A DNA stretch of 64,000 nt from an uncultured virus (IMG/VR IMGVR_UViG_2643221868_000001) (IMGVR_UViG_2643221868_000001:23769-87768); one strand, 5' to 3'; counted from the stretch's first letter, positions 13,152 through 32,937 are shown. Numbers and translations are program-made. Notes: generated by a model from the letters alone, not told the origin.

Positions 13152-13382
13152 TTACGCGGGGCGCTGGCGCCGTCCGCGTGATTTCTGCGCCTCCGGCTCC
13201 GGTTCCGCCGGGGCGGGCTCCGGCGCCGCCTCTGGCGCGGCCTCCTCGAAGGTCACGAGGCCATTGCCCCGCAACTCCACGGCCCGCGAGCGGGAAACTT
13301 GATAGGGCTGGTCGGTCGCCTGCTTCAGGTCCGGACCCTCGAGATAGGTCCGGACCGGCTGGACGATCACGTCATCGGCCAT
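13152..13382 (-). CDS. Element B MCP-companion small protein
   Basis: Directly after the satellite MCP; near-identical to 31480-31710 and similar to helper 6568-6846. Confidence 0.8.
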   Translation of the reverse strand: MADDVIVQPVRTYLEGPDLKQATDQPYQVSRSRAVELRGNGLVTFEEAAPEAAPEPAPAEPEPEAQKSRGRRQRPA

Positions 13383-13393
13383 GGTCGCCTCCC

Positions 13394-14665
13394 CTATGCC
13401 AGCGTGGCGGAGAGGCTACCGGTCACGAACGACGCCGGACGCTTCACAGTGAAGGCCAGGCGCTCCTCGGCACGTAGGGTGATGAGGTTGCGGCGGAAGT
13501 TGTCGCCGTCTTCCGACGAGGCCAGTACCTCGATTCCCATCCGGTCGAAGATCTGTGCCTGCGTCTTGAACGGACCGACGAGGAAGGTGCCCTTCGGCAT
13601 CCGGTTCGTAGTCGCCACCGGCGTCTGCCAGATGCGCTGAAGGACGGACGCCTCGAACGGCGAGTTGCCGATGTAGCGGCCCTGCGTGTCCTTCATGGCC
13701 TGGAGCATCCGCCAATCGACGGCGTTCAGGACCATGCCGTCCACCTTCCAGTTCAGCGCCTCCACCTGAGCGATGGCCTGGATGAGCACGTCGAGGGGCG
13801 AGCCCGTCGCGTTCGTCCACTGCTTCACGAAGGCGCTGGCCTGCGGGACGATGCCGAGCAGGTTCTGGCCGGTGCCGTCGCCGAACAGAAGCTGCGCGTC
13901 CTCGACGTCGGCGAGGCCGTTGCGCGCCTCGGCGTCGATGGTGGCGGCGAGCGCCGGGGCGTCGTCGATGATCTGCCGGCTGGCGAGGAAGTAGTGCGCC
14001 AAGGTGCGAACCGGCGCCGTCACCTCCTCGAAGGCAAGGTCCGATTGCGGCTTCAGCGCGCCTTCCGCCACCATGGCGGCCCCGATGGTGCGGCTGGTCA
14101 TCCGGGGGTAGGAGACCGCATTGGAGATGGTCGTCCCCTGCGCGACGAGATCGCGGACCGTGAGAGCATTCCAGGGCAGAAGAGCCGGATCGCTGACACG
14201 CTGGTCGCGGCCGACGAGAGAACCGCCGGAAGCCGTCACGCTGGTGATGTTCTTGTGCTCGTCCTCGGTCGAGGCGACTTCGGCACGAAAGCGCAGGCCC
14301 TGCCGGTCGCGGGAGCCATCGAACGACTTGTATTCCGGGGCCTCAACGAACCGCTGCCCCCAGGATTTCGGGCCGGCGAGAGACCCGCCACCGCCCCGCC
14401 GAGCCGCCTTCTGCTCTGCATCGGCCAGCCGGGCGTCCATGTCGCCGAGCTTCGACTTCACCTCGCCCATTGCGGCCTCGGCCTTGCCCAGGCGCTCGTC
14501 GGTCCTGGTGAAGAGGCCCTTGGTCTCGGTGTGGTTGGCGTCGAGGCGCTGCATCACAGCCGAACCCAGGTTCTCCGGGTTGTCGAAGGCGATGCGGAAG
14601 CGGCCGATGGTGTTGGCGGCGAGGAAGGCGGCGGAACCGCCGGCCAGGGTGTTGTGACGGTTCAT
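13394..14665 (-). CDS. Element B major capsid protein (HK97 fold, 423 aa)
   Basis: AAMVAEGALKPQS, QLLFGDGTGQNLLGI and NLITLRAEERLAFTVKRPASFV motifs; coiled-coil delta domain. Confidence 0.95.
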   Translation of the reverse strand: MNRHNTLAGGSAAFLAANTIGRFRIAFDNPENLGSAVMQRLDANHTETKGLFTRTDERLGKAEAAMGEVKSKLGDMDARLADAEQKAARRGGGGSLAGPKSWGQRFVEAPEYKSFDGSRDRQGLRFRAEVASTEDEHKNITSVTASGGSLVGRDQRVSDPALLPWNALTVRDLVAQGTTISNAVSYPRMTSRTIGAAMVAEGALKPQSDLAFEEVTAPVRTLAHYFLASRQIIDDAPALAATIDAEARNGLADVEDAQLLFGDGTGQNLLGIVPQASAFVKQWTNATGSPLDVLIQAIAQVEALNWKVDGMVLNAVDWRMLQAMKDTQGRYIGNSPFEASVLQRIWQTPVATTNRMPKGTFLVGPFKTQAQIFDRMGIEVLASSEDGDNFRRNLITLRAEERLAFTVKRPASFVTGSLSATLA

Positions 14666-15357
14666 CGGTTCAAGCCTTTCAGGTCGAGGAGATTGCGGTC
14701 GAGCGCCTTCACGAGGTCGCGCAACATTGGATCGTTGGAGGGTTGGGGTTCGTCGGAGAGTGCGGCCCAGCCGCCGGCCACGATCTGCCGGGCTGCGGCC
14801 TTGGACAGACCGCTCTTTCGAAGCAGGGTTTCGAGTTCGCCGCGCGCCGCGAGCTTCACGGAGCCGACGCGAGCGAGGGAGTTGGACGGCTCGTCCACGA
14901 TAGAGACTTCGTGGAGGTTGATTGCCTTGAGGAGGCGCCTGGGTTCGCCGACGCGCTTGCCGTTAACAGCGCCGCCGGCCGGGACACGGTAGCCGATGGA
15001 GAGGCCAGAGATGGCCCCATCCTTCACCCGCTCGTAGTAGTGCCGCCCCCGGTCGGTGTTCATGCCGGATATGCGGCCCCGGACATGCAGGCCCTTGCTG
15101 TCCTCTGACATGGCCTTCCACACGCCAATCGCGGGCTCGCCACCGTACTCCGGCAGACCGTGATTGAAGTGCATCGGGACGGCAGGCAGGCCGCTCTGGA
15201 CGCGACGGTCGAGACTGGCCTTGAAGGCGCCGGGCGCGATTGTGTCGCCATGGCTATCGATATTGCCGAAGAACGCGCCGTAGCCTTCGAACTCACCGGC
15301 ATCGGTGTTGCCAGCGAGCTTTATTTCGAGCGGGGCTGAGAGGGTTTCGAGGTCCAT
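14662..15357 (-). CDS. Element B HK97-type prohead protease
   Basis: FEGYGAFFGNIDSHGD, MHFNH, GLSIGY and LHEVSIVDEPSN motifs. Confidence 0.93.
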   Translation of the reverse strand: MDLETLSAPLEIKLAGNTDAGEFEGYGAFFGNIDSHGDTIAPGAFKASLDRRVQSGLPAVPMHFNHGLPEYGGEPAIGVWKAMSEDSKGLHVRGRISGMNTDRGRHYYERVKDGAISGLSIGYRVPAGGAVNGKRVGEPRRLLKAINLHEVSIVDEPSNSLARVGSVKLAARGELETLLRKSGLSKAAARQIVAGGWAALSDEPQPSNDPMLRDLVKALDRNLLDLKGLNR

Positions 15358-15554
15358 CGATCACCTTCGTGGATCAAAGCGACGGACACGACAGACAGAC
15401 CGCTCGAAGCGGTGTCGGTAGGTGTCCAGTTCAGCCTTGCCGCCTAGCGTCCGCCAGTGCGCCGAAGGTGTCTCGTCGAAGATGCCCCGTGCCACACGGT
15501 GACAGCCGAACCGATCGATAACGCCTAAAGCTTTACGGCAAGCGATAGGTTCCG

Positions 15555-15839
15555 TCAATGGCTGAGATGGCTGCCGATAGCCTTCCGGTCGCGGGCCGCG
15601 GCCTGTAGCTCGGGTGAGATGTTCGCCAAAGCTGTGCCGGCCGAGATGATCCGAACGGCGCTCTTAGCGACACCTTCAACGTCGATCAGCAGAGCGCAGG
15701 CGACAACGAGCCCCATCTCAGCCACGTCGGCAGGCTTGGCGCCGGCCTCGATCAGCTCGCGGAGCTTGTCGCGGATGGCTTCCTGCAACGGCTCGGAGCG
15801 GAGGTCTTCGTGGAGCGAGGCGTAAGGGTGATCGGACAT
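15555..15839 (-). CDS. Conserved satellite hypothetical protein (94 aa)
   Basis: Homologous to 33217-33498 (YASLHEDLRSEP vs YASLNEDLTAEP) at the same position in the element. Confidence 0.75.
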   Translation of the reverse strand: MSDHPYASLHEDLRSEPLQEAIRDKLRELIEAGAKPADVAEMGLVVACALLIDVEGVAKSAVRIISAGTALANISPELQAAARDRKAIGSHLSH

Positions 15840-16012
15840 GGTGTCTCCAGGGGTGGGGGTGAGTGAAAAGGTTCGGCCGATAGGGCGTGGACCGCATGGG
15901 AAGCGGCGTTCGCACTCGACAGAATTTTAGGAAGGGGGGTTTCGGCCGGATCGGGCTAAAGCCGATGGAGCGGCGAACGAAAAGCGGTTTAAACGGTGTA
16001 TCAGTTCGTGCG

Positions 16013-16441
16013 TTATTTGCCGCCGAGAATGCCCGTTGGGGTACGTGGCACTTGGAACGGGGATCGCGGCCGATCCGGCTCGAGAAGGCTGTCCCAGGCA
16101 TCGGTCCCGAGCTTTTCAGCCGCAAGCCGAGCCGCCTCTTTCTTCCCAGGACGCGGGATTGGCGGCGCTATCAGGCGTAGGTCGCGGGCCAGCCGCCGAC
16201 TGGTCGAGGTCGCCGCCTCAATCGCCCTCGTGAGCCTTAGGTATTCGTCGGTTGGCAGGCCGGGCGTCACTCGATCCCGCAGTTCGGCTAGTCGGAGCCG
16301 GGCCGCGACATAGTCCGCCACCATATCGAGTTCGGCGTCTGAAATGGGCTTCCCGAGGGCCGAACGGGCTGCAATCACCCTGCGAAACTCGCGCTTTTCG
16401 GCACGGCGCATCCATGATGGCGGGGTCGGTTCAATCATCAA
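16013..16441 (-). CDS. Small terminase-like protein (P27-family pattern)
   Basis: PTPPSWM...AEKREFRR...D.VADYV...RRLARDLRL pattern; directly downstream of the cos-like site. Confidence 0.55.
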   Translation of the reverse strand: MMIEPTPPSWMRRAEKREFRRVIAARSALGKPISDAELDMVADYVAARLRLAELRDRVTPGLPTDEYLRLTRAIEAATSTSRRLARDLRLIAPPIPRPGKKEAARLAAEKLGTDAWDSLLEPDRPRSPFQVPRTPTGILGGK

Positions 16442-16526
16442 TCGCCCTGCGGAAATCGAAAAAACGGCGAGGGGATCGGCGGGACGTCCGGCAGGGTCCG
16501 CACGCGAAAACCATTCCCAGCAAAAA

Positions 16527-16595
16527 AATCTGCGCGTGCGATCCTGTGCGATGCGTGGCCCTTAGGGCCTCTGAGTTTTGCTTCCCCCCCCGCCC
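16527..16595. other. Putative cos/packaging region of element B
   Basis: 16527-16550 matches helper 44274-44297 at 20/24; followed by GGCCCTTAG and a C-run as in the helper. Confidence 0.7.
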
Positions 16596-16719
16596 AGTGC
16601 CAGATCATGGCTCGATGTAGGTAGACGCCTCAATTTCTTGGGTTGTCGATGAGCAAATTGCCATGCCAAGGTGTGCCAGCCAAGTTCGGGCACCTCCAGC
16701 CTAACGCATGCGGTGACAA

Positions 16720-17460
16720 ATGTTCAAGCAGGATCTGGTCGTAAGACCTATCAGAGATTTTGTTTTCCCAATTGGGGTGGTGATAAATAACCGTTTCTTA
16801 CTGAGAGGAACCGCCTTTTTTATTGGTGATAAAGGTTTTGCAATTACCGCTTCACACGTCATTGATCAGCTTCACTTCGATGACGATAAAAACCGGTATG
16901 TTGGTAGCGATATCGTTGGTCTATTTATTAATGAGGCCGCAAAGTGGGAGGCTGTTGGAATAATAGGCGCAGAAAAACACCCAGACGAAGACGTTGCCAT
17001 CATAAAAATGGATGGAGCATTTCAGAGCATTTTTCAAGTAACGCCTTCACAGGAAAATTCCTCATGTGAATATGACCTCTGGGGGTATCCTGAACGAGTC
17101 GCGCACGAAATACGCGCTCTCGCAACGAATGCCGAAGAAGCCAAGCATATGATTTCGCCCGATCTCATATATAGTCGAGGTTATATTCGTAGGCGGATCT
17201 CTCGTTCTCTGGGGTCATCAATATACATTGGTCGTTTTTTCTATGAGCTGAGTGCTGTTGCTGGGGCATGCTGCTCGGGATCGCCGATTATTGCTCGCCC
17301 GCTTGTTGCAAATGCCCCTTATCGAGTAATAGGTGTATATATTGGAGAAGAGACAGCTGGTCAGCCTGCGGTAGGGTATGCGACGCGCTTCGATGACATT
17401 AAAAGTTGGATGCCCCAGCTAACCGGACAGCTTTTGCATCACCTGCCTGCCATCGGCTAA
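16720..17460 (+). CDS. Trypsin-like serine protease (cargo)
   Basis: Catalytic triad motifs AITASHV, DVAII and GACCSGSPI; low GC; inverted relative to core genes. Confidence 0.8.
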   Translation: MFKQDLVVRPIRDFVFPIGVVINNRFLLRGTAFFIGDKGFAITASHVIDQLHFDDDKNRYVGSDIVGLFINEAAKWEAVGIIGAEKHPDEDVAIIKMDGAFQSIFQVTPSQENSSCEYDLWGYPERVAHEIRALATNAEEAKHMISPDLIYSRGYIRRRISRSLGSSIYIGRFFYELSAVAGACCSGSPIIARPLVANAPYRVIGVYIGEETAGQPAVGYATRFDDIKSWMPQLTGQLLHHLPAIG

Positions 17461-17483
17461 GGTGGAACTAGTGCGTTTCGGGC

Positions 17484-17798
17484 TCATCGCAGCCCATGCC
17501 TCTTTGCCCTCGCGTCCGCCGTCTTCTTCGTGTGGCATGAGCCGCATCGCAGCCGGACGTTGCTCTCGTCCAGGCCGGGACCGCCGTCGCTGATCTCCAC
17601 CACATGGTCGCAGTAGATCCGGGTTCCTGTGCGCCCGCAGTCCTCACACTTTCGGCCCCGGGTCCGGAGAAGCCGGTCACGAAGCTCTCGCCATTCCGGC
17701 GTGCTGTAGAACGGCTGTCCGGGCTCGGTGCCTCGACTTACCTTAATCCTCGTATCGATCATGCGGAGTTGCGGCTTCAGGGTGGTGAGGCGGGCCAT
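17484..17798 (-). CDS. HNH endonuclease (packaging-associated), element B
   Basis: CEDCG...YCDHVVEISDGG...N...CGSCHTKKT; resembles helper HNH 44401-44736. Confidence 0.92.
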   Translation of the reverse strand: MARLTTLKPQLRMIDTRIKVSRGTEPGQPFYSTPEWRELRDRLLRTRGRKCEDCGRTGTRIYCDHVVEISDGGPGLDESNVRLRCGSCHTKKTADARAKRHGLR

Positions 17799-17807
17799 GG
17801 TCTGTCC

Positions 17808-18086
17808 CTATCGCTTGGTCACGTCGATCTCGTCCTCAGGCGTGAACCATCCGAGGAAGGCGGCTTCCAACACGGTGTTGACGGTATCGCCGAGAGAGAT
17901 GGCCTTGGCGCGTGAGCCCGGCTCGGTGCTGTCGATCTCAGCTATCGTGTGCTCGCCATAGGGTCCGCCGACGACGCTGACGCTGAGGGTTCGCGGATGG
18001 TCCACGGTCTCCATCACCAAAACCTGCAACGCGCCTACGTCAGGCCAGCTATGGATGAGGCCGTGAGTGATCGGGTTATCGGGCAT
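17808..18086 (-). CDS. Conserved satellite hypothetical protein (92 aa)
   Basis: Homologous to 35678-35956 (THGLIH.W...ETV.HPRT...AEIDSTEPG.RAKA.SLGD). Confidence 0.8.
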   Translation of the reverse strand: MPDNPITHGLIHSWPDVGALQVLVMETVDHPRTLSVSVVGGPYGEHTIAEIDSTEPGSRAKAISLGDTVNTVLEAAFLGWFTPEDEIDVTKR

Positions 18087-18239
18087 CAGATCCCCCAACT
18101 TTTTAGTTTGGATTTCGTCTTCGGTGCGAAGGGATGAACCCATGCGGTTCTCGCCCTTACCCGGCCGAACTTTGAGGGGTGCCCCGTATCGTGCCTAAAG
18201 CTGGCCAGCCGAGCTTGGTCCCGGCTGGCCTTTGATTGG

Positions 18240-18485
18240 CTAGAAGTTCATCTGTGGGAAGATGGTTTTAAGCACCTTCTTTCCTTCGTCCGCACCCGGT
18301 GCCGAAGCGACCTGATTTGCGGTTGCCTGGATAATTGCCTCGGCCTCGGCTTGGGTTAGAACCTTTTTGTCGACAAGTGCCAAAAGGGTCCGGGCATTCA
18401 AAATCAAGGCTGCAACCGAGGCCGCACCGGGATCGACTAAATCGGGCAAGAGCGTTTCTCCATGTACCGCGCTGGGTCGAGCCAA
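18240..18485 (-). CDS. Small hypothetical protein
   Basis: ORF with plausible composition; start uncertain; followed by an inverted repeat at ~18202-18230. Confidence 0.45.
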   Translation of the reverse strand: MARPSAVHGETLLPDLVDPGAASVAALILNARTLLALVDKKVLTQAEAEAIIQATANQVASAPGADEGKKVLKTIFPQMNF

Positions 18486-18519
18486 AGCGCCTTAACCTCA
18501 TACCGCAAGTGGTATCTAT

Positions 18520-19035
18520 CTCCACCTCAAACTGGTGGGTGGAGATAGGTGGGGGTAAGTGGAAGCTACCGACCCTCCACCACCCCTTATAGGGGGGTGG
18601 AGGGTGGTGATGGGGGTGACTGGCGAGGTGGAAGTGGAGAATCTCACTCTCCAGGTTGCGCCTCGCGGTGCGCCGCCTTGTGATGCTTCGGACAGAGCCA
18701 TTCGATCCGAAGAGGGTCGGCATAGTCGGGGTGATGCGCCTCGGCCGGCTCGGATCGGCAAACCGCGCAAGGCTCCGGTCTCAAGGCGCCCTGCTTCTTC
18801 GCCTTCTCGACAGCTCGATGCGCGCGGCGCTTCTGAGGGTTGGCCTTGATCCACTTCTGCGAGCGGGCATAGGCGCGCGCCCTCGCGGCCGGGCTCATGC
18901 CCTTCCGTGGTCGTTCCATCGGCGATGTCCGTGATGGTTTCCACACTTCCACAGGTGAGGTGTGGAACGGTGTGGAAGTGTGGAAACTCCAGTCCACACC
19001 ACCACCCCTTTAGGGGTGTGGGGTGGGGTGTGGAC
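18520..19035. repeat. Two GTGG/CCAC-rich iteron clusters with central palindromes; putative origin of element B
   Basis: CCACCCCCTTATAGGGGGGTGG near 18580-18600 and CACCCCTTTAGGGGTG near 19003-19018, each flanked by GTGGA/TCCAC repeats, just downstream of the primase-helicase gene. Confidence 0.6.
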
Positions 19036-19066
19036 GCGCTAGGGGCCGAACCTCGGGTATGGAAGC

Positions 19067-21367
19067 TCAGTCAGCGGCGATCTCGCCGACCTCGATGAAG
19101 GTCCGGTCCATCGCCTTGTCGTCCTTGCCGGTGACGGCGACAAACATGCCGGTCTTGATCCAGACGGCGAGCATTCCCTTGATCCTCGCCCGGTCGGCCT
19201 TGTTCTCCGGGTCGAGGCCCAGCGCATAGGCGATCGGTTTGCCGATCCAGTCTCGAGCCTGCGAGTTCTCACGCCACCGGCCATCCCTGGTCGCGGCCTG
19301 CGCTTTTCTGAGGTCCGCGACCGACACGCCGTCCATCGGGTTCGGTGGCTTCCATTCCGTCACCACGCCGATGCTATCGCCGTCGAGGGCGAGGGTGCCG
19401 AGGCTCCCGCCATTGCCGAGCGGAACCGATTCCATCTTGAACCATGCCGACCCCTCGGACGGCGGCGGCGCGAGGTTCGCCTTGCCATTGTCCACCCGGA
19501 AGTGAAGCCTCCGATCCGGGATGCCCTATTTTTCGGCCTCGTCCTTTTGCATCCCATTGAGGGTCCGGGCCGAACGGACTGCCGCGAGCAGCGCCACAGC
19601 GCCGCGTGCATCCTCAATCGTGATCTCGGCCCCGCCGGTCTTGCGCGAGTGATGGACGAGCTCGACGCTGCATCCGGTCTCCCCTGCGAGCCGGCCCCAT
19701 AGCTTCGCCACCCGATCCACGGCGTTGTTGTCGTTCTCCGTCACCTCATGGCAGGACACGAAGGGGTCCACGAACACCACGTCGATCTGGTTCGCCAAGA
19801 TCGTCGCCTTCAGCGCATCCACCACAGGCACGGCTATCACCACGTCGCCGCGATGCATCTTGGCTATCGTGATGGGGTCGTCTCTGCCCGAATTGACGAA
19901 CAGGCGCCCTTCGATCTCCGTCCGGTCGATCTCGAAATGTAGGCAGGCCGCTAGAATGCGCTTCTGCATCTCCTCAATCGGGTCTTCGCCGTTCCAGATC
20001 ATCACCCGATGCCGGCCGTGCGGCTGGTGCCCGATGAGGTTCCGGCCGGTCACGAGGGCAAGCGCGTCCACGATGATGATGGACGATTTGCCGAGGCCGC
20101 CGGGCGAGATGGTGGCGCTGGTATAGTGGCGGATGAGATGCCGGCCGAGCAACCATTCCCGCTGCGGCAGGGTGCGCGGGTCCACCCATACGAACGGCCG
20201 GGCCTGGAAGGCGGGCGGCGGCGGTTCGGCCTGGTGCTCCGGCTCCGGCGATGGACCCCGATCCGCGGTGCCCTGGTGGTCGCCATCCTCCCGCTTGCCG
20301 CCTCGCCATCCGATGTCCTCGGGACGCAGGCCCAGGCGGTCGCATAGCCAGAACGCGGCCTCGCGCGCATCCCGCGCCGGCAGGTAGTCTTGCACGATGT
20401 CGATGGGAGACCGGCCGCCGTCCATCGCGTCGCCCATGTCGGCCACGCCAAAATCCTTGATCCCGTCCGGGTGGATCGAAAGGTCTTCCTCGTAAGTCTC
20501 GCCCAGGTCCTTTTGCTTGACGCGGTAGGCGCCGGTCCCGGACTGCCATTTCGCGGTCGGGAACATGCTCTGGACCCAGGCGTGAAGGTTGCTGAGAGCG
20601 CGGTCGTTCACTGTCCTCCAGAAGTCGCCGCCGCCGGTATCGTGACGGGCTCGCGCGGATGCCGCGGCCCGCTCGCTGATGGACGGTCCCATGCCCGCCT
20701 CGGCCCGCTTCTCAGCTTTCTTGCGGTCCATCTCGCGGGCCAGCTCGGCGGCGGCTCGCTGCGCCTCGCGGAATTGGTCGGCCCGTTCCTGAAGGTAGGC
20801 GACGAGGCGCGGGGCCTCGCGGATCTCCGTCGGCGTGCCGGGCACATGCCGGCCGGTCACGGTGAGGTATCGGCCTTCGGTGTAGATTTCGACCTGCGCA
20901 GCGTCGATCTTTCGACCGTCTACTAGGCCACGCACGAAGAACCGGAGACCCCGGCCGGATGGACTGATCTCGGTATAGGTCTCGGCGAAGTCTACCGCGA
21001 CTTGCGCCCATGCCTGTAGCTTGCCGGTCTCCGGGTCGCGGCACTTGTCGAGGTCGATCCCGCTGTCCTCGATGTCGGGCGTGAGGACGTAGCCGATGCC
21101 GGGAAGGTTCTCGCGCTTGGCGCGGGCCACGGCCTGCTCATAGGTCGCCCAGGTCGCCGGGTCCGTCGAGGAGCCGTGCTGTCCGGTGTGCGGGTTAAGC
21201 GGCGGCTTGTCCCATTTGCCGACGCCCTGCCGGTTCACCTTCCATTCGTAGTTCCAGGCAAGCCAGTGCGGCCGCTCCCGCATCTCGCGGATGGCGGGCA
21301 GGTCCGGCAGGCCATTGAACGGCGGATAGGACGGCTTGGGCGGGCGCTCCATATTGGTGGTGCTCAC
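19067..21367 (-). pseudogene. Primase-helicase (N-terminal primase/polymerase + RepA/AAA_25 helicase) interrupted by an in-frame TAG at 19526-19528
   Basis: GIDLDKC, TEISPSGRGLR, Walker A SPGGLGKS, VFVDP, LVHHSRK; reading continues in frame after the stop (EAEK*GIPDRRLHFRVDNGKANLAPP). Confidence 0.85.
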
Positions 21368-21732: not shown

Positions 21733-21870
21733 CAGACAGACCGTCCGTGCGAAAGCGCGGCGGCGAGCGCGCTGCGCCCGGCCCCGTTGAACGAGACGTG
21801 CATGGGATTATCCTTGTGCCCGCGCACTGGCGGCTGCTACCGGAAGTTAGGCAGTTGCTGCCGGGGAGGA

Positions 21871-23101: not shown

Positions 23102-23119
23102 ATCAAACAGGCCCTGTCT

Positions 23120-23159: not shown

Positions 23160-23168
23160 CGAGGCAGG

Positions 23169-24368: not shown

Positions 24369-24369
24369 G

Positions 24370-24963: not shown

Positions 24964-25134
24964 GGGGGTGATCCTCACGGGTTGCGGCTCCATCATAGAG
25001 GCGCAGGCGCCGCCCTCCGGGATTGGAGAGCGGCGTTCGTGAGGCCCGGCCGGGCTCGGTAGACCGACGCAAAACTGCGTTCGTGCTGCGGCCTCAGTTC
25101 TGAGGCGACCGTGCGAGCGGCCGGGCCGGGGGTG

Positions 25135-25362
25135 CTAGAGCGGCAATCTCGCCAAGTCGGCGGCGTAATCCCACTTCGCCTGAAGTCTGCGATGAAGGTC
25201 GCTCACCGCGTCAGCTATCGGAGCAAGGGCTTCCGGGCTGTAGGAAGTGCCGCAGGTTCCAAGCGCGTGGAAAACCTGAGACCACCGCCACACGTCTGCG
25301 ATGTCGTTTTCCATGTCGCTGAAAGCGCACCAGATGGCGCTCGGGTGGGGCTGGTCCGCCAT
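25135..25362 (-). CDS. Small hypothetical protein
   Basis: ATG at 25362 overlaps the upstream stop codon. Confidence 0.5.
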   Translation of the reverse strand: MADQPHPSAIWCAFSDMENDIADVWRWSQVFHALGTCGTSYSPEALAPIADAVSDLHRRLQAKWDYAADLARLPL

Positions 25363-25730
25363 CAGAAGCCCCTCCATCCGCATCCAACCGTGCTCAGAAC
25401 GAGAGCGGCGCGGGTCGAGGCCGGGGGCTCGCTGTTCCCGTGAAAGCGAGCGCCATCGTTTGCTGCCGGGATCATGTCGAACTGATCCCAGCCCGCCATT
25501 TCGTCCCGAAACGGGAGGGAAAGGCGCTGGATCGTGTCGCGGTTGCCGTACCGCTCCCACTGTAGCCAGCGACGCTCGTATTCGAGCCATGCGTCGTAGC
25601 TGTCGAGGAGGTCAGGGGTGAGCGGTGCGGCCACCGCCGAGGGCGAGCCGATAAGCGCCACGCTGCCGCCGATGAGCGGGAGCGAGGCGAGGCCGGAGAG
25701 GAAGCCCCGGCGGGATGCGGGGCCGCTCAT
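25362..25730 (-). CDS. Hypothetical protein with twin-arginine-like N-terminus
   Basis: SRRGFLSGLASLPLIGG; translationally coupled on both sides. Confidence 0.65.
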   Translation of the reverse strand: MSGPASRRGFLSGLASLPLIGGSVALIGSPSAVAAPLTPDLLDSYDAWLEYERRWLQWERYGNRDTIQRLSLPFRDEMAGWDQFDMIPAANDGARFHGNSEPPASTRAALVLSTVGCGWRGF

Positions 25731-26257
25731 GCCGTGAGTCCAGTCTGCTCGGCGAGACCATCGGCGTCACCGATGCCCCATTCCGCCATGTCGAGCTCGC
25801 GGTCGTCGTCGGCCTCTTGATCGTGACTCTCCTCGTCGTCCTCATGACCGGACCGCTTAAAACCCGCTCCAGCCCGCTCCAGCGCAGTCGCGTCGCCGTC
25901 CGGCGTGTTGGGGCCGAGGCCGAGTTGTCTCGCGTTCTCGCACCAGCCTAGCGCATCCTCGCCGCCCTGGTCGTCGGAGTTAGCGTCTTCGTCGGGCTCG
26001 ACGTCCCCGTCGTCCTCAAGATCGGGGTCGCCGCCGGTCGCGTCGAGGAAGTCGATCCCCTCGGCGACGGCCTTCGCCACGCGACGACGAAGGGCGAGGA
26101 GGTCGGCGGCTTCCTGCCGGCGCATCTCAGCTTCGCGGATCTCCCACGACGGCATCTCATTCGGGCGCAGGCCGCGAATGGCGCGGGTCACAGGTCCGAC
26201 CGTAGGCGCAGCCGGCAGCGGGGCGAAGAACGCCCGGCGCATATTTTGAAACGACAT
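25727..26257 (-). CDS. Acidic hypothetical protein following the immunity region
   Basis: MSFQ start shared with 8583; IDFLDATGGDPDLE followed by an Asp/Glu-rich tail. Confidence 0.7.
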   Translation of the reverse strand: MSFQNMRRAFFAPLPAAPTVGPVTRAIRGLRPNEMPSWEIREAEMRRQEAADLLALRRRVAKAVAEGIDFLDATGGDPDLEDDGDVEPDEDANSDDQGGEDALGWCENARQLGLGPNTPDGDATALERAGAGFKRSGHEDDEESHDQEADDDRELDMAEWGIGDADGLAEQTGLTA

Positions 26258-26259
26258 GG

Positions 26260-26610
26260 TGAATGGTCTTTCGCAGCTAAACAGGCTTCTCAGGGCCTGG
26301 GTCTTCAACCTTCTCAGGGGCATCCGACCAAACCAGTCAGCGGGACTGGCGCCGGGAGTCTGAGAACACGCTGCGAAACGTGCGCCACGGCCTTCACCCG
26401 AAGGCTCTTGTATAACCGTGGCACTCCCGGCATAGTGAGCCGGTCGCGACCCACGGTATCGGGCGCGTCGAAGATTTCGGCGACACTCCGGCCGGCAAGC
26501 CGCAGCACACGCCTATCGCAGATGGAATGCTATCCCCGGCAAGGGACCATTCCGAGAGTTCTCAGGCTCCATATTCACCATGACACGACAACCCCGCGCC
26601 CGGCAAGGCG
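26260..26610 (-). ncRNA. Putative c4/P4-CI-like antisense immunity RNA with target sites, element A
   Basis: Promoter-like TTGCCG-17-CATGGT on the - strand; 26558-26570 is complementary (12/13) to 26355-26367; homologous to 8585-8930. Confidence 0.55.
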
Positions 26611-26667
26611 GCGGGGGTTTCGTCGTGCACGTTTAGTAGAGGAGCTTGTTGCTCTGACGGAGTGCTC

Positions 26668-27123
26668 ATGTCTGACGAAACGCCGACGCCATCGCTGGCC
26701 GATGCCGCAAGAGCTCAAAGGTCGCGCGTGGATGAAGCGGCAGCTAAAAGACTAAGCGATGAGGCCGCTCGACAAGCCGCCTTGGACAAAGTTGCTCTCG
26801 CATGGAAGGACGTTTCGGATCGATTTTCTCGTATTGTATCGAATGTTAACGATGAACTCGAGGGTACCGGCGCTTCCGTCTCAATGGTGAAGTCCGAATT
26901 TGATAAAAGTAAAAGAGAAGCGTCCGCTAGGTTCACCCTGTCCAGAGAGTGGACTCCGCAAATTAAGTCCTTTCTTCAGTTGTTCTGCGATTACGATGGG
27001 GCAATAAAAATCACTAGTAGCAATTCTGCTATCAAAGCTCATATGGAGGGCTATGTTTCGAACTTGCCAATGTCTTATTATGATGGGTACGTTCGAAAGT
27101 TTCTAGCCTTAGAACTGAAATAG
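26668..27123 (+). CDS. Low-GC hypothetical cargo protein
   Basis: Occupies the same slot as 8971-9717 in element B; AT-rich. Confidence 0.65.
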   Translation: MSDETPTPSLADAARAQRSRVDEAAAKRLSDEAARQAALDKVALAWKDVSDRFSRIVSNVNDELEGTGASVSMVKSEFDKSKREASARFTLSREWTPQIKSFLQLFCDYDGAIKITSSNSAIKAHMEGYVSNLPMSYYDGYVRKFLALELK

Positions 27124-27274
27124 CTACGGCTTCTTGGTCGCCTTTTGGATGCGGCGGACTTACTCGACGAACATCGGCGGGATACGCCATAGAGATCCCG
27201 CCGCATGAAATAAATGCGCCTAGGGCGCAGAGATTGCCCTTGCCTCTTGTGCGCCCAGGGCGTACACACTCCCC

Positions 27275-27544
27275 ATGGATTTCGATTGGCACGATGAGAA
27301 GTCGGAGACGAACAAGGCCGAGCGCGGCTTTGGTTTCGACTTCGCCGCGCTGATCTTCCTCGGTCGGACACTCCTCAAGACCGATGACCGCCAGGATTAC
27401 GGCGAGGTTCGTGTGAACGCCCTCGGCGAGGTCGACGGCGATATCTACAATGTCACTTTCACGGATCGCGGCGACGTGCGTTGGATCATTTCCGCCCGCC
27501 GCGCCAATCGGAAGGAGCGCAAGCTATGGCACGCGTCAGCCTAG
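27275..27544 (+). CDS. brnT: BrnT-family toxin
   Basis: FDWHDEKSETN..ERGFGF...DYGEVR...WIISARRANRKER pattern. Confidence 0.9.
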   Translation: MDFDWHDEKSETNKAERGFGFDFAALIFLGRTLLKTDDRQDYGEVRVNALGEVDGDIYNVTFTDRGDVRWIISARRANRKERKLWHASA

Positions 27545-28005
27545 ACTACCTCAAGGCGAACCGGCCCCAGGTCGATCAAGCCAAAATGGACGCTACCACG
27601 GAAGCGGATATCCGCCGGCACATGGTCGAAGACGGCCACGAGCCGGACGCGGAACCCGTAGGCTATCGCGCCATGCCCTCGCCCGCCGATATCCGCGCAC
27701 GGCTCGGCCTCACACAGGTTGCCTTCGCGAATGCGCTAGGTGTGCCGGCGGCTACCCTTCGGAACTGGGAACAGGGACGAAAGCAGCCGGACCCGGCCGC
27801 TCGCTCGCTATTGACGATCTTCGACCGTGAACCCGAAGCGGCGATGCGGGCGTTGGGGTTCGAAACAAAGCCGCCCTCGTTTCATGATGTCCTCGCCGAG
27901 ATGGTCCGGGCAAGGAGTGTTGAGACTACGGTTGAGGATAAGGTCGGAATAGTGGTGGGTCAGTTGGAGGTACTTCTCGGGGTGCCGCCGGCCCACCACG
28001 AGTGA
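27526..28005 (+). CDS. XRE/HTH antitoxin with C-terminal extension
   Basis: IRARLGLTQVAFANALGVPAATLRNWEQGRKQP; overlaps the toxin stop codon. Confidence 0.8.
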   Translation: MARVSLDYLKANRPQVDQAKMDATTEADIRRHMVEDGHEPDAEPVGYRAMPSPADIRARLGLTQVAFANALGVPAATLRNWEQGRKQPDPAARSLLTIFDREPEAAMRALGFETKPPSFHDVLAEMVRARSVETTVEDKVGIVVGQLEVLLGVPPAHHE

Positions 28006-28181
28006 TCTCGACAACCGCACCCCGGCTGCTAACCCTGCCGGGGCCTACGGCTTCCCCGTCGCCTTCTGGATGCCCGGCGGGAATTGTCGTGCACGCTTGC
28101 CATCCTCTCGCGGCAATCCACATTGTGAGAGGGCGGCAGCGAGTAGCGCCAGCTTTGCTCTACTGAGGTCGGGAGGATATT

Positions 28182-28421
28182 TTGAGCGAACAATCGGTCG
28201 AGAGCTTGAAGCTTATCAGACAGTATTTCGTCGCCAAAAGGCGGGATTGCGCAAGAATAGCGGTGGCAGATCTAAAACAAGGTATCCTTGCTGGCCAAAT
28301 TAGTAAGGTTTTAGCGTATCAGAATGAAATCGAGACTATAGACAGAGCTATCGCTGATGAAGAGTCCGGTGAAAGCTCCCATCAGCCAGAAAGTATGAAA
28401 GGCCCTAGTAAGTCCCTCTAG
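28182..28421 (+). CDS. Small hypothetical cargo protein
   Basis: GGGAGG RBS before the TTG start. Confidence 0.5.
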   Translation: MSEQSVESLKLIRQYFVAKRRDCARIAVADLKQGILAGQISKVLAYQNEIETIDRAIADEESGESSHQPESMKGPSKSL

Positions 28422-28560
28422 CTGATGGGCTTCCCAATCTCGTTCGACCACACCCGCACGATGCGCGTGGTGATGCCGGCTCGGGTGAGGACAATCTACA
28501 AGCAGCAATGCCCTTACGAACCCGAGAATTCCTTATCCGAAAAATACATAGGAGGATTCG

Positions 28561-28770
28561 ATGGCATCGGAAAACCTGACCTTTTTGCAGACCCACGGCA
28601 ATCGGAATATCTACCGATTCGATCTCCCTTTGCCGACCGGTTCGGAGGTTTTCACGGAATATAGAGGGCGGACCTTTATTGTACGCGGTGATGGCTCACA
28701 TCTCGAGACCCCGCCGGTTGAGACTTTCGAAACTGAGGAAGCCGCGCTGAAGTGGCTACACGACGCCTAG
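28561..28770 (+). CDS. Small hypothetical cargo protein
   Basis: AGGAGG RBS before the ATG. Confidence 0.6.
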   Translation: MASENLTFLQTHGNRNIYRFDLPLPTGSEVFTEYRGRTFIVRGDGSHLETPPVETFETEEAALKWLHDA

Positions 28771-28896
28771 AATGGCTTAGGGTACTCAGGGCGGCGCGAG
28801 TATGCGCCACGACTGACCGTTGCCTTGACACCACAGACACCGGCTCGGGATTGCGGCATGAAAGTGCCGCAACTTTCTGATGCTCCGGATTTTCTG

Positions 28897-29301
28897 ATGC
28901 GCGCCCTCGCCACCCTCGCCGTGTGTTCGCTCGCCCTGGCCGGGTGCCAGTCTTCGCGGGAGCCCAACCTCACTGTGGCCTCCACGCAAAGCCACACGCT
29001 TTCGCCCGCCCAAGTTGGGATTGTGAAGGCGGTAGTGCTCGCCGATCTGAAAGACCCCTACTCCGCTCATTTCGGACGAATTCTATCGGCGAAAACTGCA
29101 CTATCGAACGGCCTAAACGGCTATGTCGTGTGCGGTGAGGTCAACTCGAAAAACAGCTACGGCGGCTATGTTGGGATGTCGCCCTTCATCGGAGCGTTCA
29201 AGCCCGACGGCAAAGAGTTCAAAGTTGTGGCAATGGGTGGCCCTGTCGTGATGACGGCAGAAGTCACAAAATATTGCGCCGAGGCCGGGATAACCTTTTA
29301 G
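28897..29301 (+). CDS. Lipoprotein (possible superinfection-exclusion type)
   Basis: Lipobox LAGC; LKDPYSAHF...VCGEVNSKNSYGGYVG motif common in prophage-borne lipoproteins. Confidence 0.75.
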   Translation: MRALATLAVCSLALAGCQSSREPNLTVASTQSHTLSPAQVGIVKAVVLADLKDPYSAHFGRILSAKTALSNGLNGYVVCGEVNSKNSYGGYVGMSPFIGAFKPDGKEFKVVAMGGPVVMTAEVTKYCAEAGITF

Positions 29302-29308
29302 GCCGCGC

Positions 29309-29752
29309 CTATTCGCCGAACGGGTCCACTAGAAGCGATCCGGTCGCCGGGATGGACGAGCTGATGATGGCCGAACTGATGGCCGCGCCTGCCGATCCGG
29401 CCGCGACCGAAACCCCGAATGCGCCGGCGAACCCGATCGCATAGTACTGGCCCGCCGCGACCGCCGCGACCGTGAGCGCGATGGTCAGGATGTTCTTGAG
29501 GGCGCCGTCGCCAGGAACCGGCTTGAGGACCACCATCGTTCCGATCTTGGGGCGCACACAGTCCCACATGGCCGGCGGAACCTCGATATTGTCCACGAGG
29601 GCGCGAATGATCCCGGCACGCTCGGCCGGCAGGCCCGGATAGCTGCGAACCACCATTTCGCCGATAGTCGTCCTCTCCGGCACCATAAGTGCCCGCTTGG
29701 CGTGCGGGTTCATGACGCTATCGAACGCCAAGACGGGGATCTCAGAAAGCAT
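29309..29752 (-). CDS. N-terminal portion of a tail-tip / tail-assembly protein (gpI/gpJ-N-like), apparently truncated
   Basis: WDCVRPK.G..V.LKPVPG followed by an Ala/Gly-rich hydrophobic stretch; follows DUF1833-like and NlpC/P60 genes; no central-fibre body follows. Confidence 0.6.
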   Translation of the reverse strand: MLSEIPVLAFDSVMNPHAKRALMVPERTTIGEMVVRSYPGLPAERAGIIRALVDNIEVPPAMWDCVRPKIGTMVVLKPVPGDGALKNILTIALTVAAVAAGQYYAIGFAGAFGVSVAAGSAGAAISSAIISSSIPATGSLLVDPFGE

Positions 29753-30179
29753 TGCGGGTCTCCACTTCACGATGCCGGTAAACGCCTGTCAGGCGATGAA
29801 CCCAAGGGTTCCGGCTGTAGTCGACGATGCCGCTGTACGCCTGCCCGGACGTGGCATGGAGCATCCGGCCGGGGGTCGCGCGGATGCCGACATGGGCGTC
29901 CAGAGCGCCAACCCGGAACACGAGGATGTCGAAGTCCTCGGCGTCCTCCGGCGCCTTCCTGATCCAGGGACCGGCGGCCGACGTGCTTTCGGCGAACACC
30001 GCCGCAACCTCGGCTTTCTCGGCAATGCAGGCGACCTGGGCGGCATAGTCGGGGACAGTGATGCCGAGGTACTCACGATAGACGAGGCACGCCAACCCCC
30101 AGCACGCGATACCATCGCGCGTGAGGCCGCGCTCCTGCCAAGGCAGGCCGACGTAGGGGGCGCTCCAATGCATTGCCAT
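29742..30179 (-). CDS. NlpC/P60 tail-assembly protein
   Basis: YVGLPW..RG.TRDGIACWGL, HVGI and MLHA motifs. Confidence 0.85.
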   Translation of the reverse strand: MAMHWSAPYVGLPWQERGLTRDGIACWGLACLVYREYLGITVPDYAAQVACIAEKAEVAAVFAESTSAAGPWIRKAPEDAEDFDILVFRVGALDAHVGIRATPGRMLHATSGQAYSGIVDYSRNPWVHRLTGVYRHREVETRNAF

Positions 30180-30181
30180 GC

Positions 30182-30694
30182 CTAGTTGAAAAGCGAGGGG
30201 AACCGGCTGGCGGTCATCCGCCCTTCGGGCCACGGTTCGGAGGTGAAAGGCTCGCGGGATAGCTCTATGCCGACCTGCGCGGCGTCGTAGCTGGAAGCCA
30301 CACCGCGCAAGCCTCGATAGCTGGTCTCAATGAAGTCAGGCGTCCCAGCGAGCACAACGAAAATGTCGGCACGCAAGTATGTCCCCGGAGTGATGCCCCG
30401 CAGAACAGCCGCCATATCTTTTGAAATGTTCTCGAACACAAGCCTCGTCTTCGGTGGCGCATTTTCCTGGTCGTCAGGCATAATCGCGCCGACCATCAGA
30501 TAAATATAGTCCTCGCCAGCGTGCTTAGTGCCGTAGACCATAGGCTCAATTGAGAGGCGGACGGTCGGATCGCTTGATATACGAACGGGCTTTTCCAGAC
30601 TCGGATGATAGATCGTCACGAGCATGATTGGCGTCTCTGCCGTACTAGGGGCATTCGCCCCCACGCGAGCATTGAGCGAGATTAGGCGGCCCAT
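30182..30694 (-). CDS. Tail-tip protein (DUF1833-like)
   Basis: LVTIYHPSL..PVRISSDP...PPKTRLVFENI...EPWP..RMT.SRFPSLF pattern. Confidence 0.75.
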   Translation of the reverse strand: MGRLISLNARVGANAPSTAETPIMLVTIYHPSLEKPVRISSDPTVRLSIEPMVYGTKHAGEDYIYLMVGAIMPDDQENAPPKTRLVFENISKDMAAVLRGITPGTYLRADIFVVLAGTPDFIETSYRGLRGVASSYDAAQVGIELSREPFTSEPWPEGRMTASRFPSLFN

Positions 30695-31338
30695 ACGACG
30701 CGCTCCCCTTCCTGAAAGTCCGGGGTCTGTTCCCACCGGTGGATGAGCCGGGTACGGATGTCCCAGTGCGATATCGTGGTGAGTTGCGCGAAGGCGCCGA
30801 TCCCGTGCGCCGGGTTACGCCTCTGAAGGTCCAGCAGCCGCACGCTGTCCGTCATAGGGTCGAAGTCCTCCAAAGCCTCGCGGCTCGAAACGATCTCGTG
30901 CACTCCCTCGACTACATCCGGCCCGGCCGGGTGCATGGCGATGTCCTCGACCGTCTGGATTTCCCATGGGAGCGGAATGCGCTCGTCGTCGTGGAACACG
31001 AAAGCGTCGAGGCCCGTGGTCTCAGACCTTCCGGCCACGGCGATGAGCCAGCGAGGGTCCGGCATTCGGTCCATCAGCGGCTTAGCCCGGTCGATGGCTG
31101 TCCGCACCGTGTCGAGGATCGTCGCCTTCAACTCGTCGTAGCTCGTCGCGCTGAGCGCGATTTCCTGAAACAGGATCGGGGCCAGCAATTGCGGCCCGGC
31201 CGCCGCGATGACCGCGTGAAGGTGCGGCATCTGCCAGACCTTCGGGCATGAGCCGGCGAAATGGCCGCCCTGGAACGCAGCGCCGTCCGTGATGACGTAG
31301 ACGTATTCGGATTGCTTCACGACATTGATGGCTGTCAC
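30682..31338 (-). CDS. Hypothetical protein, possibly Ntn-hydrolase/proteasome-like fold
   Basis: GTG start gives MTAINVV...VITDG with an N-terminal Thr; fold assignment is inference. Confidence 0.5.
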   Translation of the reverse strand: MTAINVVKQSEYVYVITDGAAFQGGHFAGSCPKVWQMPHLHAVIAAAGPQLLAPILFQEIALSATSYDELKATILDTVRTAIDRAKPLMDRMPDPRWLIAVAGRSETTGLDAFVFHDDERIPLPWEIQTVEDIAMHPAGPDVVEGVHEIVSSREALEDFDPMTDSVRLLDLQRRNPAHGIGAFAQLTTISHWDIRTRLIHRWEQTPDFQEGERVVWAA

Positions 31339-31479
31339 GGATCGCCCTGCCCTATCGGGTGGATGGAATCGCCGGCCGCGCACCAGGAATGGGATGCCGC
31401 CGGCTGTCGGGGTTGTTTCGGACACTCGCCGACTTGTCCGCCGCCGGACTGACCCGCATTTGCGGACCCGGCAGTCGCG

Positions 31480-31710
31480 TTACGCGGGGCGCTGGCGCCG
31501 TCCGCGTGATTTTTGAGCCTCCGGCTCCGGTTCCGCCGGGGCGGGCTCCGGCGCCGCCTCTGGCGCAGCCTCCTCGAAGGTCACGAGGCCATTGCCCCGC
31601 AACTCCACGGCCCGCGAGCGGGAGACCGGATAGGGCTGGTCGGTCGCCTGTTTCAGGTCCGAACCTTCGAGATAGGTCCGAACCGGCTGGACGATCACGT
31701 CATCCGTCAT
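31480..31710 (-). CDS. Element A MCP-companion small protein
   Basis: 73/76 aa identical to 13152-13382. Confidence 0.8.
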   Translation of the reverse strand: MTDDVIVQPVRTYLEGSDLKQATDQPYPVSRSRAVELRGNGLVTFEEAAPEAAPEPAPAEPEPEAQKSRGRRQRPA

Positions 31711-31719
31711 GATCGCCCC

Positions 31720-32937
31720 TTACGCCAGCGAGGCGGTGAGGCTGCCGGTGACGAAGGAGGCCGGACGCTTCACGGTGAAGGCCAGGCGCTCCTCGGCACG
31801 CAGGGTGATGAGGTTGCGGCGGAAGTTGTCGCCGTCTTCCGACGATGCCAGCACCTCGACGCCCATCCGGTCGAAGATCTGCGCCTGCGTCTTGAACGGG
31901 CCAACGAGGAAGGTGCCCTTCGGCATCCGGTTCGTCGTCGCCACCGGCGTTTGCCAGATCCGCTGAAGAACGGACGCCTCAAACGGCGAGTTGCCGATGT
32001 AGCGGCCCTGAGTGTCCTTCATGGCCTGAAGCATCCGCCAATCGACGGCGTTCAGCACCATGCCGTCCACCTTCCAGTTCAGCGCTTCCACCTGAGCGAT
32101 GGCCTGGATGAGCACGTCGAGCGGCGAGCCCATCGCGTTCGTCCACTGCTTCGCGAACGCACTAGCCTGCGGCACGATGCCGAGAAGGTTCTGACCCGTG
32201 CCGTCGCCGAACAGAAGCTGTGCGTCCTCAACGTCGGCGAGGCCGTTGCGGGCTTCGGCATCGATGGTCGCGGCGAGCGCCGGGGCATCGTCGATGATCT
32301 GCCGGCTGGCGAGGAAGTAGTGCGCCAGTGTGCGAACCGGTGCCGTCACCTCCTCGAAGGCCATGTCCGACTGAGGCTTGAGCGCACCCTCGGCGACCAT
32401 CGCCGCGTTGTTCGTGCGGCCGGTCATGCGAGGATAGCTGACCGCGTTCGACTCGGTCGTGCCGGCCGCCACCAGATCGCGTACCGTCAGCGTGTTCCAG
32501 GGCATCAGCGACAGGTCGGAGACGCGACGGTCTACCGGCACCAGGGAGCCGCCAGAGCCGGACACGCTGGTGATGTTCTTGTGTTCGCCTTCGGTCGAGG
32601 CCACCTCGGCGCGGAACTTCAGGCCCTGCCGATCGCGGGATCCCTGGAAGCCCTTGTACTCATCGGACTCGACAAAGCGCTGACCCCAGCTCTTCGTGGC
32701 GATGCCGCCGCCGCGACCGCCGCGGGCCGCCTTCTGTTCCACGTCCGATAGGCGGGCGTTCGTCTCGGTGGCGAAGCGTGACACCTCCCCGAACTTCTCC
32801 TTCACCATCGTCGCGATGGCGCTGATGTCGCCCCCCTGAGAGTCAGGCGGAGCCAGAGCGACACGGATGCCGCCGATGTTGCAGGATGCCAGGAAAGCGG
32901 CCGAGCCGGCGCCAACAGAGCGAATGAGTTTGGTCAT
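31720..32937 (-). CDS. Element A major capsid protein (HK97 fold, 405 aa)
   Basis: Mature region nearly identical to the element B MCP; shorter delta domain. Confidence 0.95.
   Translation of the reverse strand: MTKLIRSVGAGSAAFLASCNIGGIRVALAPPDSQGGDISAIATMVKEKFGEVSRFATETNARLSDVEQKAARGGRGGGIATKSWGQRFVESDEYKGFQGSRDRQGLKFRAEVASTEGEHKNITSVSGSGGSLVPVDRRVSDLSLMPWNTLTVRDLVAAGTTESNAVSYPRMTGRTNNAAMVAEGALKPQSDMAFEEVTAPVRTLAHYFLASRQIIDDAPALAATIDAEARNGLADVEDAQLLFGDGTGQNLLGIVPQASAFAKQWTNAMGSPLDVLIQAIAQVEALNWKVDGMVLNAVDWRMLQAMKDTQGRYIGNSPFEASVLQRIWQTPVATTNRMPKGTFLVGPFKTQAQIFDRMGVEVLASSEDGDNFRRNLITLRAEERLAFTVKRPASFVTGSLTASLA

Follow-up and report, generated by a model that had tools for sequence, protein, structure and literature searches.

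Two putative phage satellites with their own capsid genes in the split capsid gene of a putative Methylobacterium prophage

INTRODUCTION

How do two elements that each encode a major capsid protein (MCP) relate to the prophage whose own MCP gene they interrupt? This question is raised by a stretch of 64,000 nucleotides, hereafter the window, which corresponds to bases 23769-87768 of an 87.8-kb IMG/VR provirus record from an uncultured virus (IMGVR_UViG_2643221868_000001). Relatives of the window proteins bear the name Methylobacterium, which we take as the host genus. With confidence slightly above even, we read the window as a composite in which an HK97-like cos prophage (the helper) houses two related satellites of 15-16 kb, E1 and E2. 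Below, positions are those of the window, and features lie on the minus strand unless (+) is given.

RESULTS

The helper capsid gene is cut into three pieces

Junction translation and DNA comparison showed that the helper MCP gene is present in three pieces, cut by E1 and E2. Piece 1 (38275-39302), as given by junction translation, encodes residues 1 to about 342 and ends with ...LNDTDWAR. The open reading frame (ORF) that contains it (38166-39302) matches Phage_capsid only at positions 11-178 of the 280-position model, then enters unrelated E1 sequence and stops at 38166. Piece 2 (DWARIELTKDTQGRY...FVKNMIT) occupies 22869-23101, and piece 3 (NMITIRAEERLALAVYRPAAFVQGQLTTVV followed by a stop, its start being read NMITIRAEERLA) lies at 6918-7019. 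The 8-bp core TGGGCCCG is duplicated at site 1 (attL1 38275-38282, attR1 23094-23101), and the 14-bp core AAGAACATGATCAC at site 2 (attL2 22869-22882, attR2 7006-7019; repeat family D9), so that piece 2 is bounded by attR1 and attL2. Between these core repeats, E1 measures 15,173 bp (23102-38274) and E2 15,849 bp (7020-22868). An earlier sequence-only reading, which named the two elements A (E1) and B (E2), had treated 13152-32937 as one unit; that interval begins midway through E2, crosses MCP piece 2, and ends midway through E1, and it was replaced by the two units above. When the E1 MCP was searched against all six frames of the record, exactly five matches resulted, namely two full satellite genes and the three helper pieces.

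Removal of both elements in silico leaves a 1344-nt frame whose only stop is terminal and which encodes an MCP of 444 amino acids (aa). The restored protein is 91% identical over its full length to P0050, an intact 444-aa public homolog that has both target motifs. The open frame and this match indicate that the insertions were precise and that the helper MCP gene is undecayed. No replacement sequence for the disrupted gene is carried by E1 or E2, and the truncated fusion ORFs terminate in unrelated sequence. The satellites' own MCP genes mismatch the cores at 4 of 8 positions (site 1) and 4 of 14 positions (site 2), and self-targeting is therefore unlikely, a point also made in the paper on the enterobacterial element 11capE (PMC10111431). 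On balance we favor the view that each satellite was inserted by its own tyrosine integrase into a distinct short core site of the helper MCP gene.

An E1-free junction in sequencing data

A Logan contig from run X1, the probable source, joins position 23093 to 38275 and skips 15,181 bases, which is the expected E1-free junction. Eight letters of this contig fit both sides, and 22 letters lie on its shorter side. Its geometry is that of a junction-specific piece in a 31-mer assembly graph, if a word length of 31 is assumed. The E1 contigs of the same run end exactly at 23094 and 38282, and their depth is 171-268 versus 69 for the junction contig. As the contig crosses the predicted core, an E1-free form with site 1 rejoined exists in the run X1 sample.

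This bears on the earlier claim that the helper MCP is disabled in cis. The three-piece gene confirms the disruption, and the idea of a lasting knock-out is weakened. The lack of a replacement sequence, the restoration of the ORF by precise removal, and the existence of the E1-free contig make the insertion better seen as a gate than as a permanent disabling.

Each satellite encodes a full MCP and a small companion protein

Both elements encode a full MCP (E1: 405 aa, 31720-32937, Pfam Phage_capsid 3.8e-51; E2: 423 aa, 13394-14665, 1.3e-48) followed by a 76-aa companion gene (E1: 31480-31710, phrog_20799, of unknown function; E2: 13152-13382, identified by homology to the E1 and helper genes). 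The restored helper MCP aligns end to end with the satellite proteins at 45.6% (E1) and 48.2% (E2) identity. The two satellite MCPs are 79% identical overall and mosaic, with a nucleotide identity of 49-75% over codons 1-200 and of 88-94% thereafter. The RLxDxEQK motif starts at residue 103 of the helper MCP, 62 of E1, and 79 of E2, and the N-terminal region before it is shorter than that of the helper by 41 aa in E1 and 24 aa in E2. Ratios of nonsynonymous to synonymous substitution rates lie between 0.13 and 0.39 in 15/15 pairs of satellite MCPs, which indicates that the protein is under purifying selection.

The companion proteins of E1 and E2 share 96% identity, and their identity to the product of the small gene after the helper MCP (6568-6915, also phrog_20799) is 43%. 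They have a conserved N-terminal region of about 45 aa, a linker rich in Pro, Ala, and Glu, and a basic C-terminal tail. The companion probably acts with the capsid or in packaging, as a partner matched to its MCP. Homology to lambda gpFI was considered and is unsupported: an Atlas structure match to Packaging_FI fell under the tool's own bar, a profile comparison with the FI protein of NRG857c gave a probability of 1.8%, and Pfam returned no match.

The portal and the terminase belong to the helper

A six-frame profile search of the whole 87.8-kb record found one portal and one TerL_nuclease, both of the helper. The portal gene (40387-42141; Pfam Phage_portal 2e-99) and the large terminase (TerL) gene (42152-43840; Pfam TerL_ATPase and TerL_nuclease) are each the sole match. 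ORFs of at least 300 aa in the elements comprise only the MCP, an antisense shadow of the MCP, the integrase, the replication protein, and an ABC-ATPase; no unassigned ORF of this size, which a portal or TerL would need, was found in E1 or E2. The E2 MCP is preceded by a 65-aa ORF and an S78 prohead protease (231 aa, 14662-15357; Pfam 7.8e-24) that is 54% identical to the helper protease (39323-40240; Peptidase_S78 7.3e-26), and the E1 MCP by neither.

E1 also has a block of four ORFs of 247, 184, 163, and 153 aa (29309-31425), the last three of which are homologs of helper tail-tip genes (66%, 59%, and 37% identity; phrog_396 "minor tail protein", Pfam NlpC/P60, and a J-like N-terminus). The 247-aa ORF has no family match.

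The sequence-only reading had listed these contents largely as we find them. A full MCP followed by a companion homolog is present in both elements, and the peptides quoted for the companions match. Its statement that portal and TerL are missing also stands, and the accompanying statement that head-tail genes are missing has to be corrected for the E1 tail-tip homologs. The protease is indeed in E2 only. A "terS-like" gene was also assigned to that element alone: this 94-aa protein (15555-15839) has a homolog at 45% identity (tblastn) in the 97-aa protein of E1 (33217-33510), and since the former has no Pfam or PHROG match, as is the case for the latter, the label is unsupported.

A candidate cos block is common to helper and satellites

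In HK97-like phages, cos is located in the gap that separates HNH from terS. The 111-aa HNH endonuclease of the helper (44401-44736; Pfam HNH 5.4e-05) is followed by the small terminase (TerS; 129 aa, 43837-44226; phrog_18735 and phrog_641, both "terminase small subunit"), and the gap between the two genes holds a candidate cos block (44274-44327). Elsewhere in the window it matches just one stretch of E1 (33805-33859; 86% over 56 nt, E 1e-10) and one of E2 (16527-16565), both downstream of the satellite HNH genes. These genes encode 104-aa proteins (E1: 34497-34811; E2: 17484-17798, Pfam HNH 2.1e-09) that are 90% identical to each other and 41-42% identical to the helper HNH protein. The candidate block recurs in the related satellites of loci L006 and L012.

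The MCP module is found in related loci

Seven related loci were taken from species-representative genomes. Relatives of the satellite-type MCP are 62-94% identical and are named Methylobacterium or Methylorubrum where the source names them. The pair of MCP and small gene is present in 6/7 loci; in L009 the MCP is present and the small gene was not detected. An S78 protease lies upstream of the MCP in 5/7 loci and is absent from L007 and L012, as in E1. By tblastn, a helper-like portal or TerL was found within 10 kb of the satellite MCP in 0/7 loci, and a Phage_portal match near the satellite MCP in 0/5 whole genomes searched.

In two of these loci, L007 and L008, a tRNA gene marks one boundary and an exact copy of its 3' part (22 and 46 nt) the other, giving units of 16.4 and 16.6 kb. 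The mapped units are uniform in size, at 15.1-16.6 kb. That the related loci also lie in capsid genes was ruled out, as no MCP fragments adjoin any of the seven. Because tRNA-integrated and other loci carry the module, the MCP and small gene are a core trait of a mostly chromosomal satellite family. A scan of viral contigs with the E1 MCP gave nine pattern matches, of which tblastn confirmed none.

The genome of M. bullatum contains an isolated C-terminal Phage_capsid fragment with two stops (G001:C1:4468560-4468910), a long way from the satellite of that genome; the fragment may be the remnant of another split capsid gene.

Several integrases of the lineage adjoin phage late genes

Integrases related to those of E1 and E2 occur in 14/401 sampled genomes of the family (E <= 1e-30) and in 8/146 genomes of the genus (E <= 1e-50). 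We examined the insertion sites of the 11 relatives with 33% identity or more to the E2 protein. Five of them (G326, G305, G414, G468, and G525) adjoin a phage late gene that is truncated at its 5' end and lies on the same strand. In G326, a P22-type coat gene is split: both halves are present with an 18-bp core repeat around a 15.1-kb element (L032 8353 to L033 3429), and removal of the element gives an open frame of 395 aa. The N-terminal half of this gene was missed by the hidden Markov model (HMM) and recovered via the 18-bp repeat. The G326 element has its own T4-type TerL and a tape-measure-like gene, and no match to either of the two capsid families searched. The truncated genes in the other four are TerL from residue 136 (G305, with an N-terminal fragment 55 kb away), a gpA-type TerL from model position 40 (G414), a C-terminal portal fragment (G468), and phrog_13692 from position 42 (G525). 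The remaining six (G305b, G004, G195, G475, G451, and G410) adjoin other or unidentified sequence, G410 being at a contig end.

These results, along with the tRNA-integrated relatives, argue against another part of the sequence-only reading, in which the knock-out of the helper MCP is coupled to its replacement. The tRNA-integrated relatives carry the MCP module, and the G326 element splits a coat gene and matches neither of the two capsid families searched.

In a maximum-likelihood tree of 25 integrases, E1, E2, and ten of the relatives (G410 excluded) form a 12-member clade with 99/98 support. All seven late-gene-adjoining integrases fall inside this clade, and those of the tRNA-integrated L007 and L009 and of 11capE outside it. 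The late-gene label is not significantly clustered on the tree, as it needs 5 changes and 59/500 shuffles were as good. For the 12 Beijerinckiaceae integrases outside the clade, targets were checked only for MCP fragments, helper-protein matches, or tRNAs.

Two further observations concern this lineage. The split TerL of G305 spans about 55 kb (G305:C1 ~3392334-3447585, L028/L029) with a clade integrase at the downstream junction, and the insert is much larger than one satellite. The interval from the integrase stop to the core holds a conserved stretch with CGCTAAGTCRTTGAT-like sequence, both in the window (near 23105-23160 and 7025-7075) and in L039, L040, and L028; this stretch may be an attP arm site. 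In some clade members it is preceded by TTTACGCAT...GCGCATAG, as seen by eye.

Weighing the explanations

We give a modest preference to an explanation in which a helper coexists with two satellites that bear MCP genes, use the helper packaging machinery, and form their own capsids. The integrated satellites would keep the helper from making its own capsid protein, and excision would restore this capacity. After induction, the satellites would be cut and packaged at a shared cos-like site by the helper TerS, TerL, and HNH proteins. They would use the helper portal and tails, E1 also needing a protease in trans, and their N-terminally shorter MCPs would build capsids fit for a 15-16 kb genome or steer assembly toward them. 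Several points weigh against this explanation. The match between the E2 and helper cos blocks is weak (77% over 39 nt, E 0.005). Mobility is documented by one contig at the E1 site, the depths of the neighboring contigs are too variable to test additivity, and no circular attP joint is listed among the run X1 contigs; the junction contig could reflect excision or an E1-free subpopulation. The 87.8-kb record holds no tyrosine integrase beyond the two of the satellites, which places the helper integration module outside the record or makes it of another type, and the helper genome has only an upper bound of 56.7 kb (the record minus the elements). Published systems add two more points: a capsid gene knockout is tolerated in the enterobacterial model phage-inducible chromosomal island (PICI; PMC10111431), and Ccm, the capsid protein homolog of the Staphylococcus aureus pathogenicity island (SaPI) SaPIbov5, is 19% identical to the helper capsid protein and gives no capsids without the phage protein (PMC5052747).

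The satellite MCP might act as Ccm does, co-assembling with the restored helper MCP after excision or steering it into small capsids. Such a role fits the shortened N-terminal region, which Ccm also has (44 residues, PMC5052747), the restoration of the helper MCP by excision, and the same MCP in tRNA-integrated relatives, whose intact helper is elsewhere. The satellite MCPs are, however, full-length and 46-48% identical to that of the helper, versus 19% for Ccm; E2 brings its own protease, and no helper MCP can be made until both satellites have left. We regard this possibility as unlikely, and still less probable is that the MCP is a captured late gene, dispensable for transfer, with packaging in helper-sized heads, possibly as multimers, and embedding that only times or rides on helper replication and late transcription. 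The tail-tip homologs of E1 are a capture of this kind, and the G326 relative has TerL and a tape-measure-like gene in place of an MCP, but retention of the MCP and small-gene pair in 6/7 related loci, purifying selection on the MCP, and the uniform 15.1-16.6 kb units speak against it. Finally, the lack of a helper integrase in the record would suit an inert composite, that is, a dead prophage colonized by unrelated integrative elements with no helper-satellite relation. This we consider very improbable in view of the undecayed helper MCP pieces (91% to an intact homolog), the key ORFs that are all open, the homology between helper and satellites of the cos-like block and of the HNH, MCP, small, and protease genes, and the E1-free junction contig.

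Other genes of the elements

E1 and E2 are co-oriented with the helper late operon, and all their backbone genes are on its strand. They share the order attL-Rep-HNH-cos-Late-cargo-antirepressor-int-attR and the general traits of phage satellites, with their own integrase and replication genes, an incomplete virion set, and sizes of 15.2 and 15.8 kb versus at most 56.7 kb for the helper. A terminator-like hairpin is equally placed in both, 44-45 nt inside the upstream end (E1: 38214-38231, 44 nt inside; homologous E2 hairpin: 22810-22824); the terminator scan as a whole was not enriched (17 sites vs 14 +/- 4 expected).

The first gene is shared (E1: 37659-37955; E2 homolog near 22329-22511, 56% identity). 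It is followed in E1 by a replication initiator (36556-37617; Pfam HTH_36; phrog_270 "replication initiation protein", 5.4e-38) with three internal 24-nt direct repeats that are candidate iterons (37127-37199, repeat family D19), and in E2 by a 613-aa protein read as a primase/helicase-like replication protein (19526-21367; Pfam AAA_25 2.5e-36), which has a 58%-identical homolog in the L010 satellite. Both elements have a gene of 92 or 111 aa between the replication module and the HNH gene.

At the other end, E1 encodes an antirepressor-like protein with a P22_AR_N domain (24370-24996; Pfam 1.3e-27) and a 399-aa tyrosine integrase (23169-24368; Pfam Phage_integrase 2.6e-20). The antirepressor-like gene is truncated in E2, where the integrase (7086-8279; Pfam Phage_integrase 2.1e-26) has an ORF that runs on to 8519 through a remnant of the antirepressor C-terminus. 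The cargo of E2 includes an ABC-ATPase of 637 aa (10925-12838 (+); Pfam AAA_15; PADLOC AriA 6.5e-25 and Old 5.9e-15). Its local GC content is 0.44, it also matches the PADLOC GajA and PtuA models, and from its resemblance to OLD/AriA/GajA proteins it is probably an anti-phage defense cargo; no gene for a partner nuclease was found. A trypsin-like peptidase gene lies on the opposite strand of E2 (16720-17460 (+)), with a Pfam Trypsin_2 match below the cut-off and weak PADLOC matches to LmuA/PDC-M35A.

Other features of the helper and of the record

Helper head-tail and tail genes restart below 6915 and include those for the tail tube (2351-3283) and the tape measure (from 1402). J-like and other tail genes follow in the record to the left of the window. 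A collagen triple-helix repeat protein is encoded amid the head-tail genes (5394-6059). The helper also has a tRNA-Thr(TGT) gene (46034-46109) and a C-5 cytosine DNA methylase gene (47735-49018), and the C-terminus of its portal has a PBECR3 nuclease-like domain (PF18812) at 2.7e-06, below the cut-off. Prophage callers took the entire 87.8-kb composite for one provirus, with a CheckV completeness estimate of 92%. Nested satellites such as E1 and E2 swell and distort viral genome catalogues.

COMPARISON WITH KNOWN SYSTEMS

The closest published layout is that of the helper-embedded PICIs (HE-PICIs) described by Tommasini, Mageeney and Williams in 2023 (PMC10111431), with Eco567.11capE of E. coli NRG857c as type element. 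All HE-PICIs surveyed there are from Enterobacteriaceae, and the reference PICIs include Pasteurellaceae. The capsid gene is their commonest target, and 11capE splits it yet bears its own copy, which differs at the att region. E1 and E2 share with these elements a position inside a helper late gene, co-orientation, the lack of replacement sequence in attP, and restoration of the gene by excision. They also share an own capsid gene with a differing core, Bro-type proteins, late genes acquired by capture, and a sequence that the helper has as well, at the putative cos position. One helper with two elements is likewise on record, and 11capE also has a small head gene, for a head decoration protein, beside its MCP gene.

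The differences concern the integrase, gene order, target, and host. The E1 and E2 integrases are 22% identical to that of 11capE, with pairwise E values of 2e-5 (E1) and 0.02 (E2) compared with a TBLASTN threshold of 1e-20 in the paper, and in our tree the 11capE integrase sits on a terminal branch of length 4.98 outside all 24 other rows. The doubled TGTATTGC motif that flanks attP in HE-PICIs had 0 matches in the window at <=3 mismatches. The order is int-alpA-Bro-Rep-Late in HE-PICIs, whereas in E1 and E2 the integrase is the last gene before attR, with the antirepressor-like gene just upstream; AlpA/HTH_17 had no match in the ORFs scanned, which covered part of the small ones. The target is an HK97-type MCP gene here and lambda E in HE-PICIs, and the host is the alphaproteobacterium Methylobacterium rather than a member of Enterobacteriaceae. 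Finally, the two satellites occupy two sites of the same gene, and the published double HE-PICI case involves two different genes. Judged by titles and abstract openings, the papers found on helper-embedded elements and HE-PICIs describe none outside Enterobacterales.

SaPIbov5 is comparable in other respects. It also has a size of about 14-16 kb, around one third of that of its helper, a capsid homolog of the HK97 fold with a short N-terminal region, and no portal or TerL. Carpena 2016 tied the length of the delta-domain to capsid size, the delta-domain of Ccm being 44 residues shorter (PMC5052747). SaPIbov5 carries the helper cos, to which the candidate block of E1 (86% over 56 nt) and, weakly, of E2 (77% over 39 nt) would correspond. 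Unlike Ccm, the E1 and E2 MCPs are full-length and 46-48% identical to that of the helper, and E2 has its own protease. SaPIs are also chromosomal, whereas E1 and E2 are embedded in their helper. The capsid-forming PICIs (cf-PICIs) encode the complete protein set for making capsids and for exclusive packaging, and require nothing further but tails (Alqurainy et al., bioRxiv 10.1101/2022.09.08.507074). E1 and E2 resemble them in having their own MCP and differ in having no portal and TerL and, for E1, no protease.

The knock-out-and-replace reading is partly supported, as a known idea in a new lineage. The layout of a satellite in the helper capsid gene with a capsid gene of its own was already known from enterobacteria in 2023; the different integrase lineage, the other gene order, the alphaproteobacterial host, and the two satellites in one gene are new. 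Published cases of helper-embedding come from a single integrase clade and, in the survey, from Enterobacteriaceae only (PMC10111431), and in Methylobacterium a distant lineage (22% identity) hits capsid, coat, terminase, and portal genes. We tentatively suggest, while holding it to be somewhat short of an even chance, that a second integrase lineage, of independent origin, exists in Alphaproteobacteria and has a tropism for the morphogenesis genes of prophages. Its MCP-bearing members would form a class between PICIs and cf-PICIs, which would gate the helper capsid gene in cis, substitute an MCP with a short delta-domain and a small basic-tailed partner, and use the helper portal, terminase, HNH, and tails for satellite-sized particles. 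Given the targets of this lineage, late-gene embedding would be a convergent and probably widespread satellite strategy. With two satellites that must both exit before the helper can make capsid protein, each bringing a capsid gene but no portal or terminase, the composite is a test case for the assembly of a foreign capsid protein on a helper portal.

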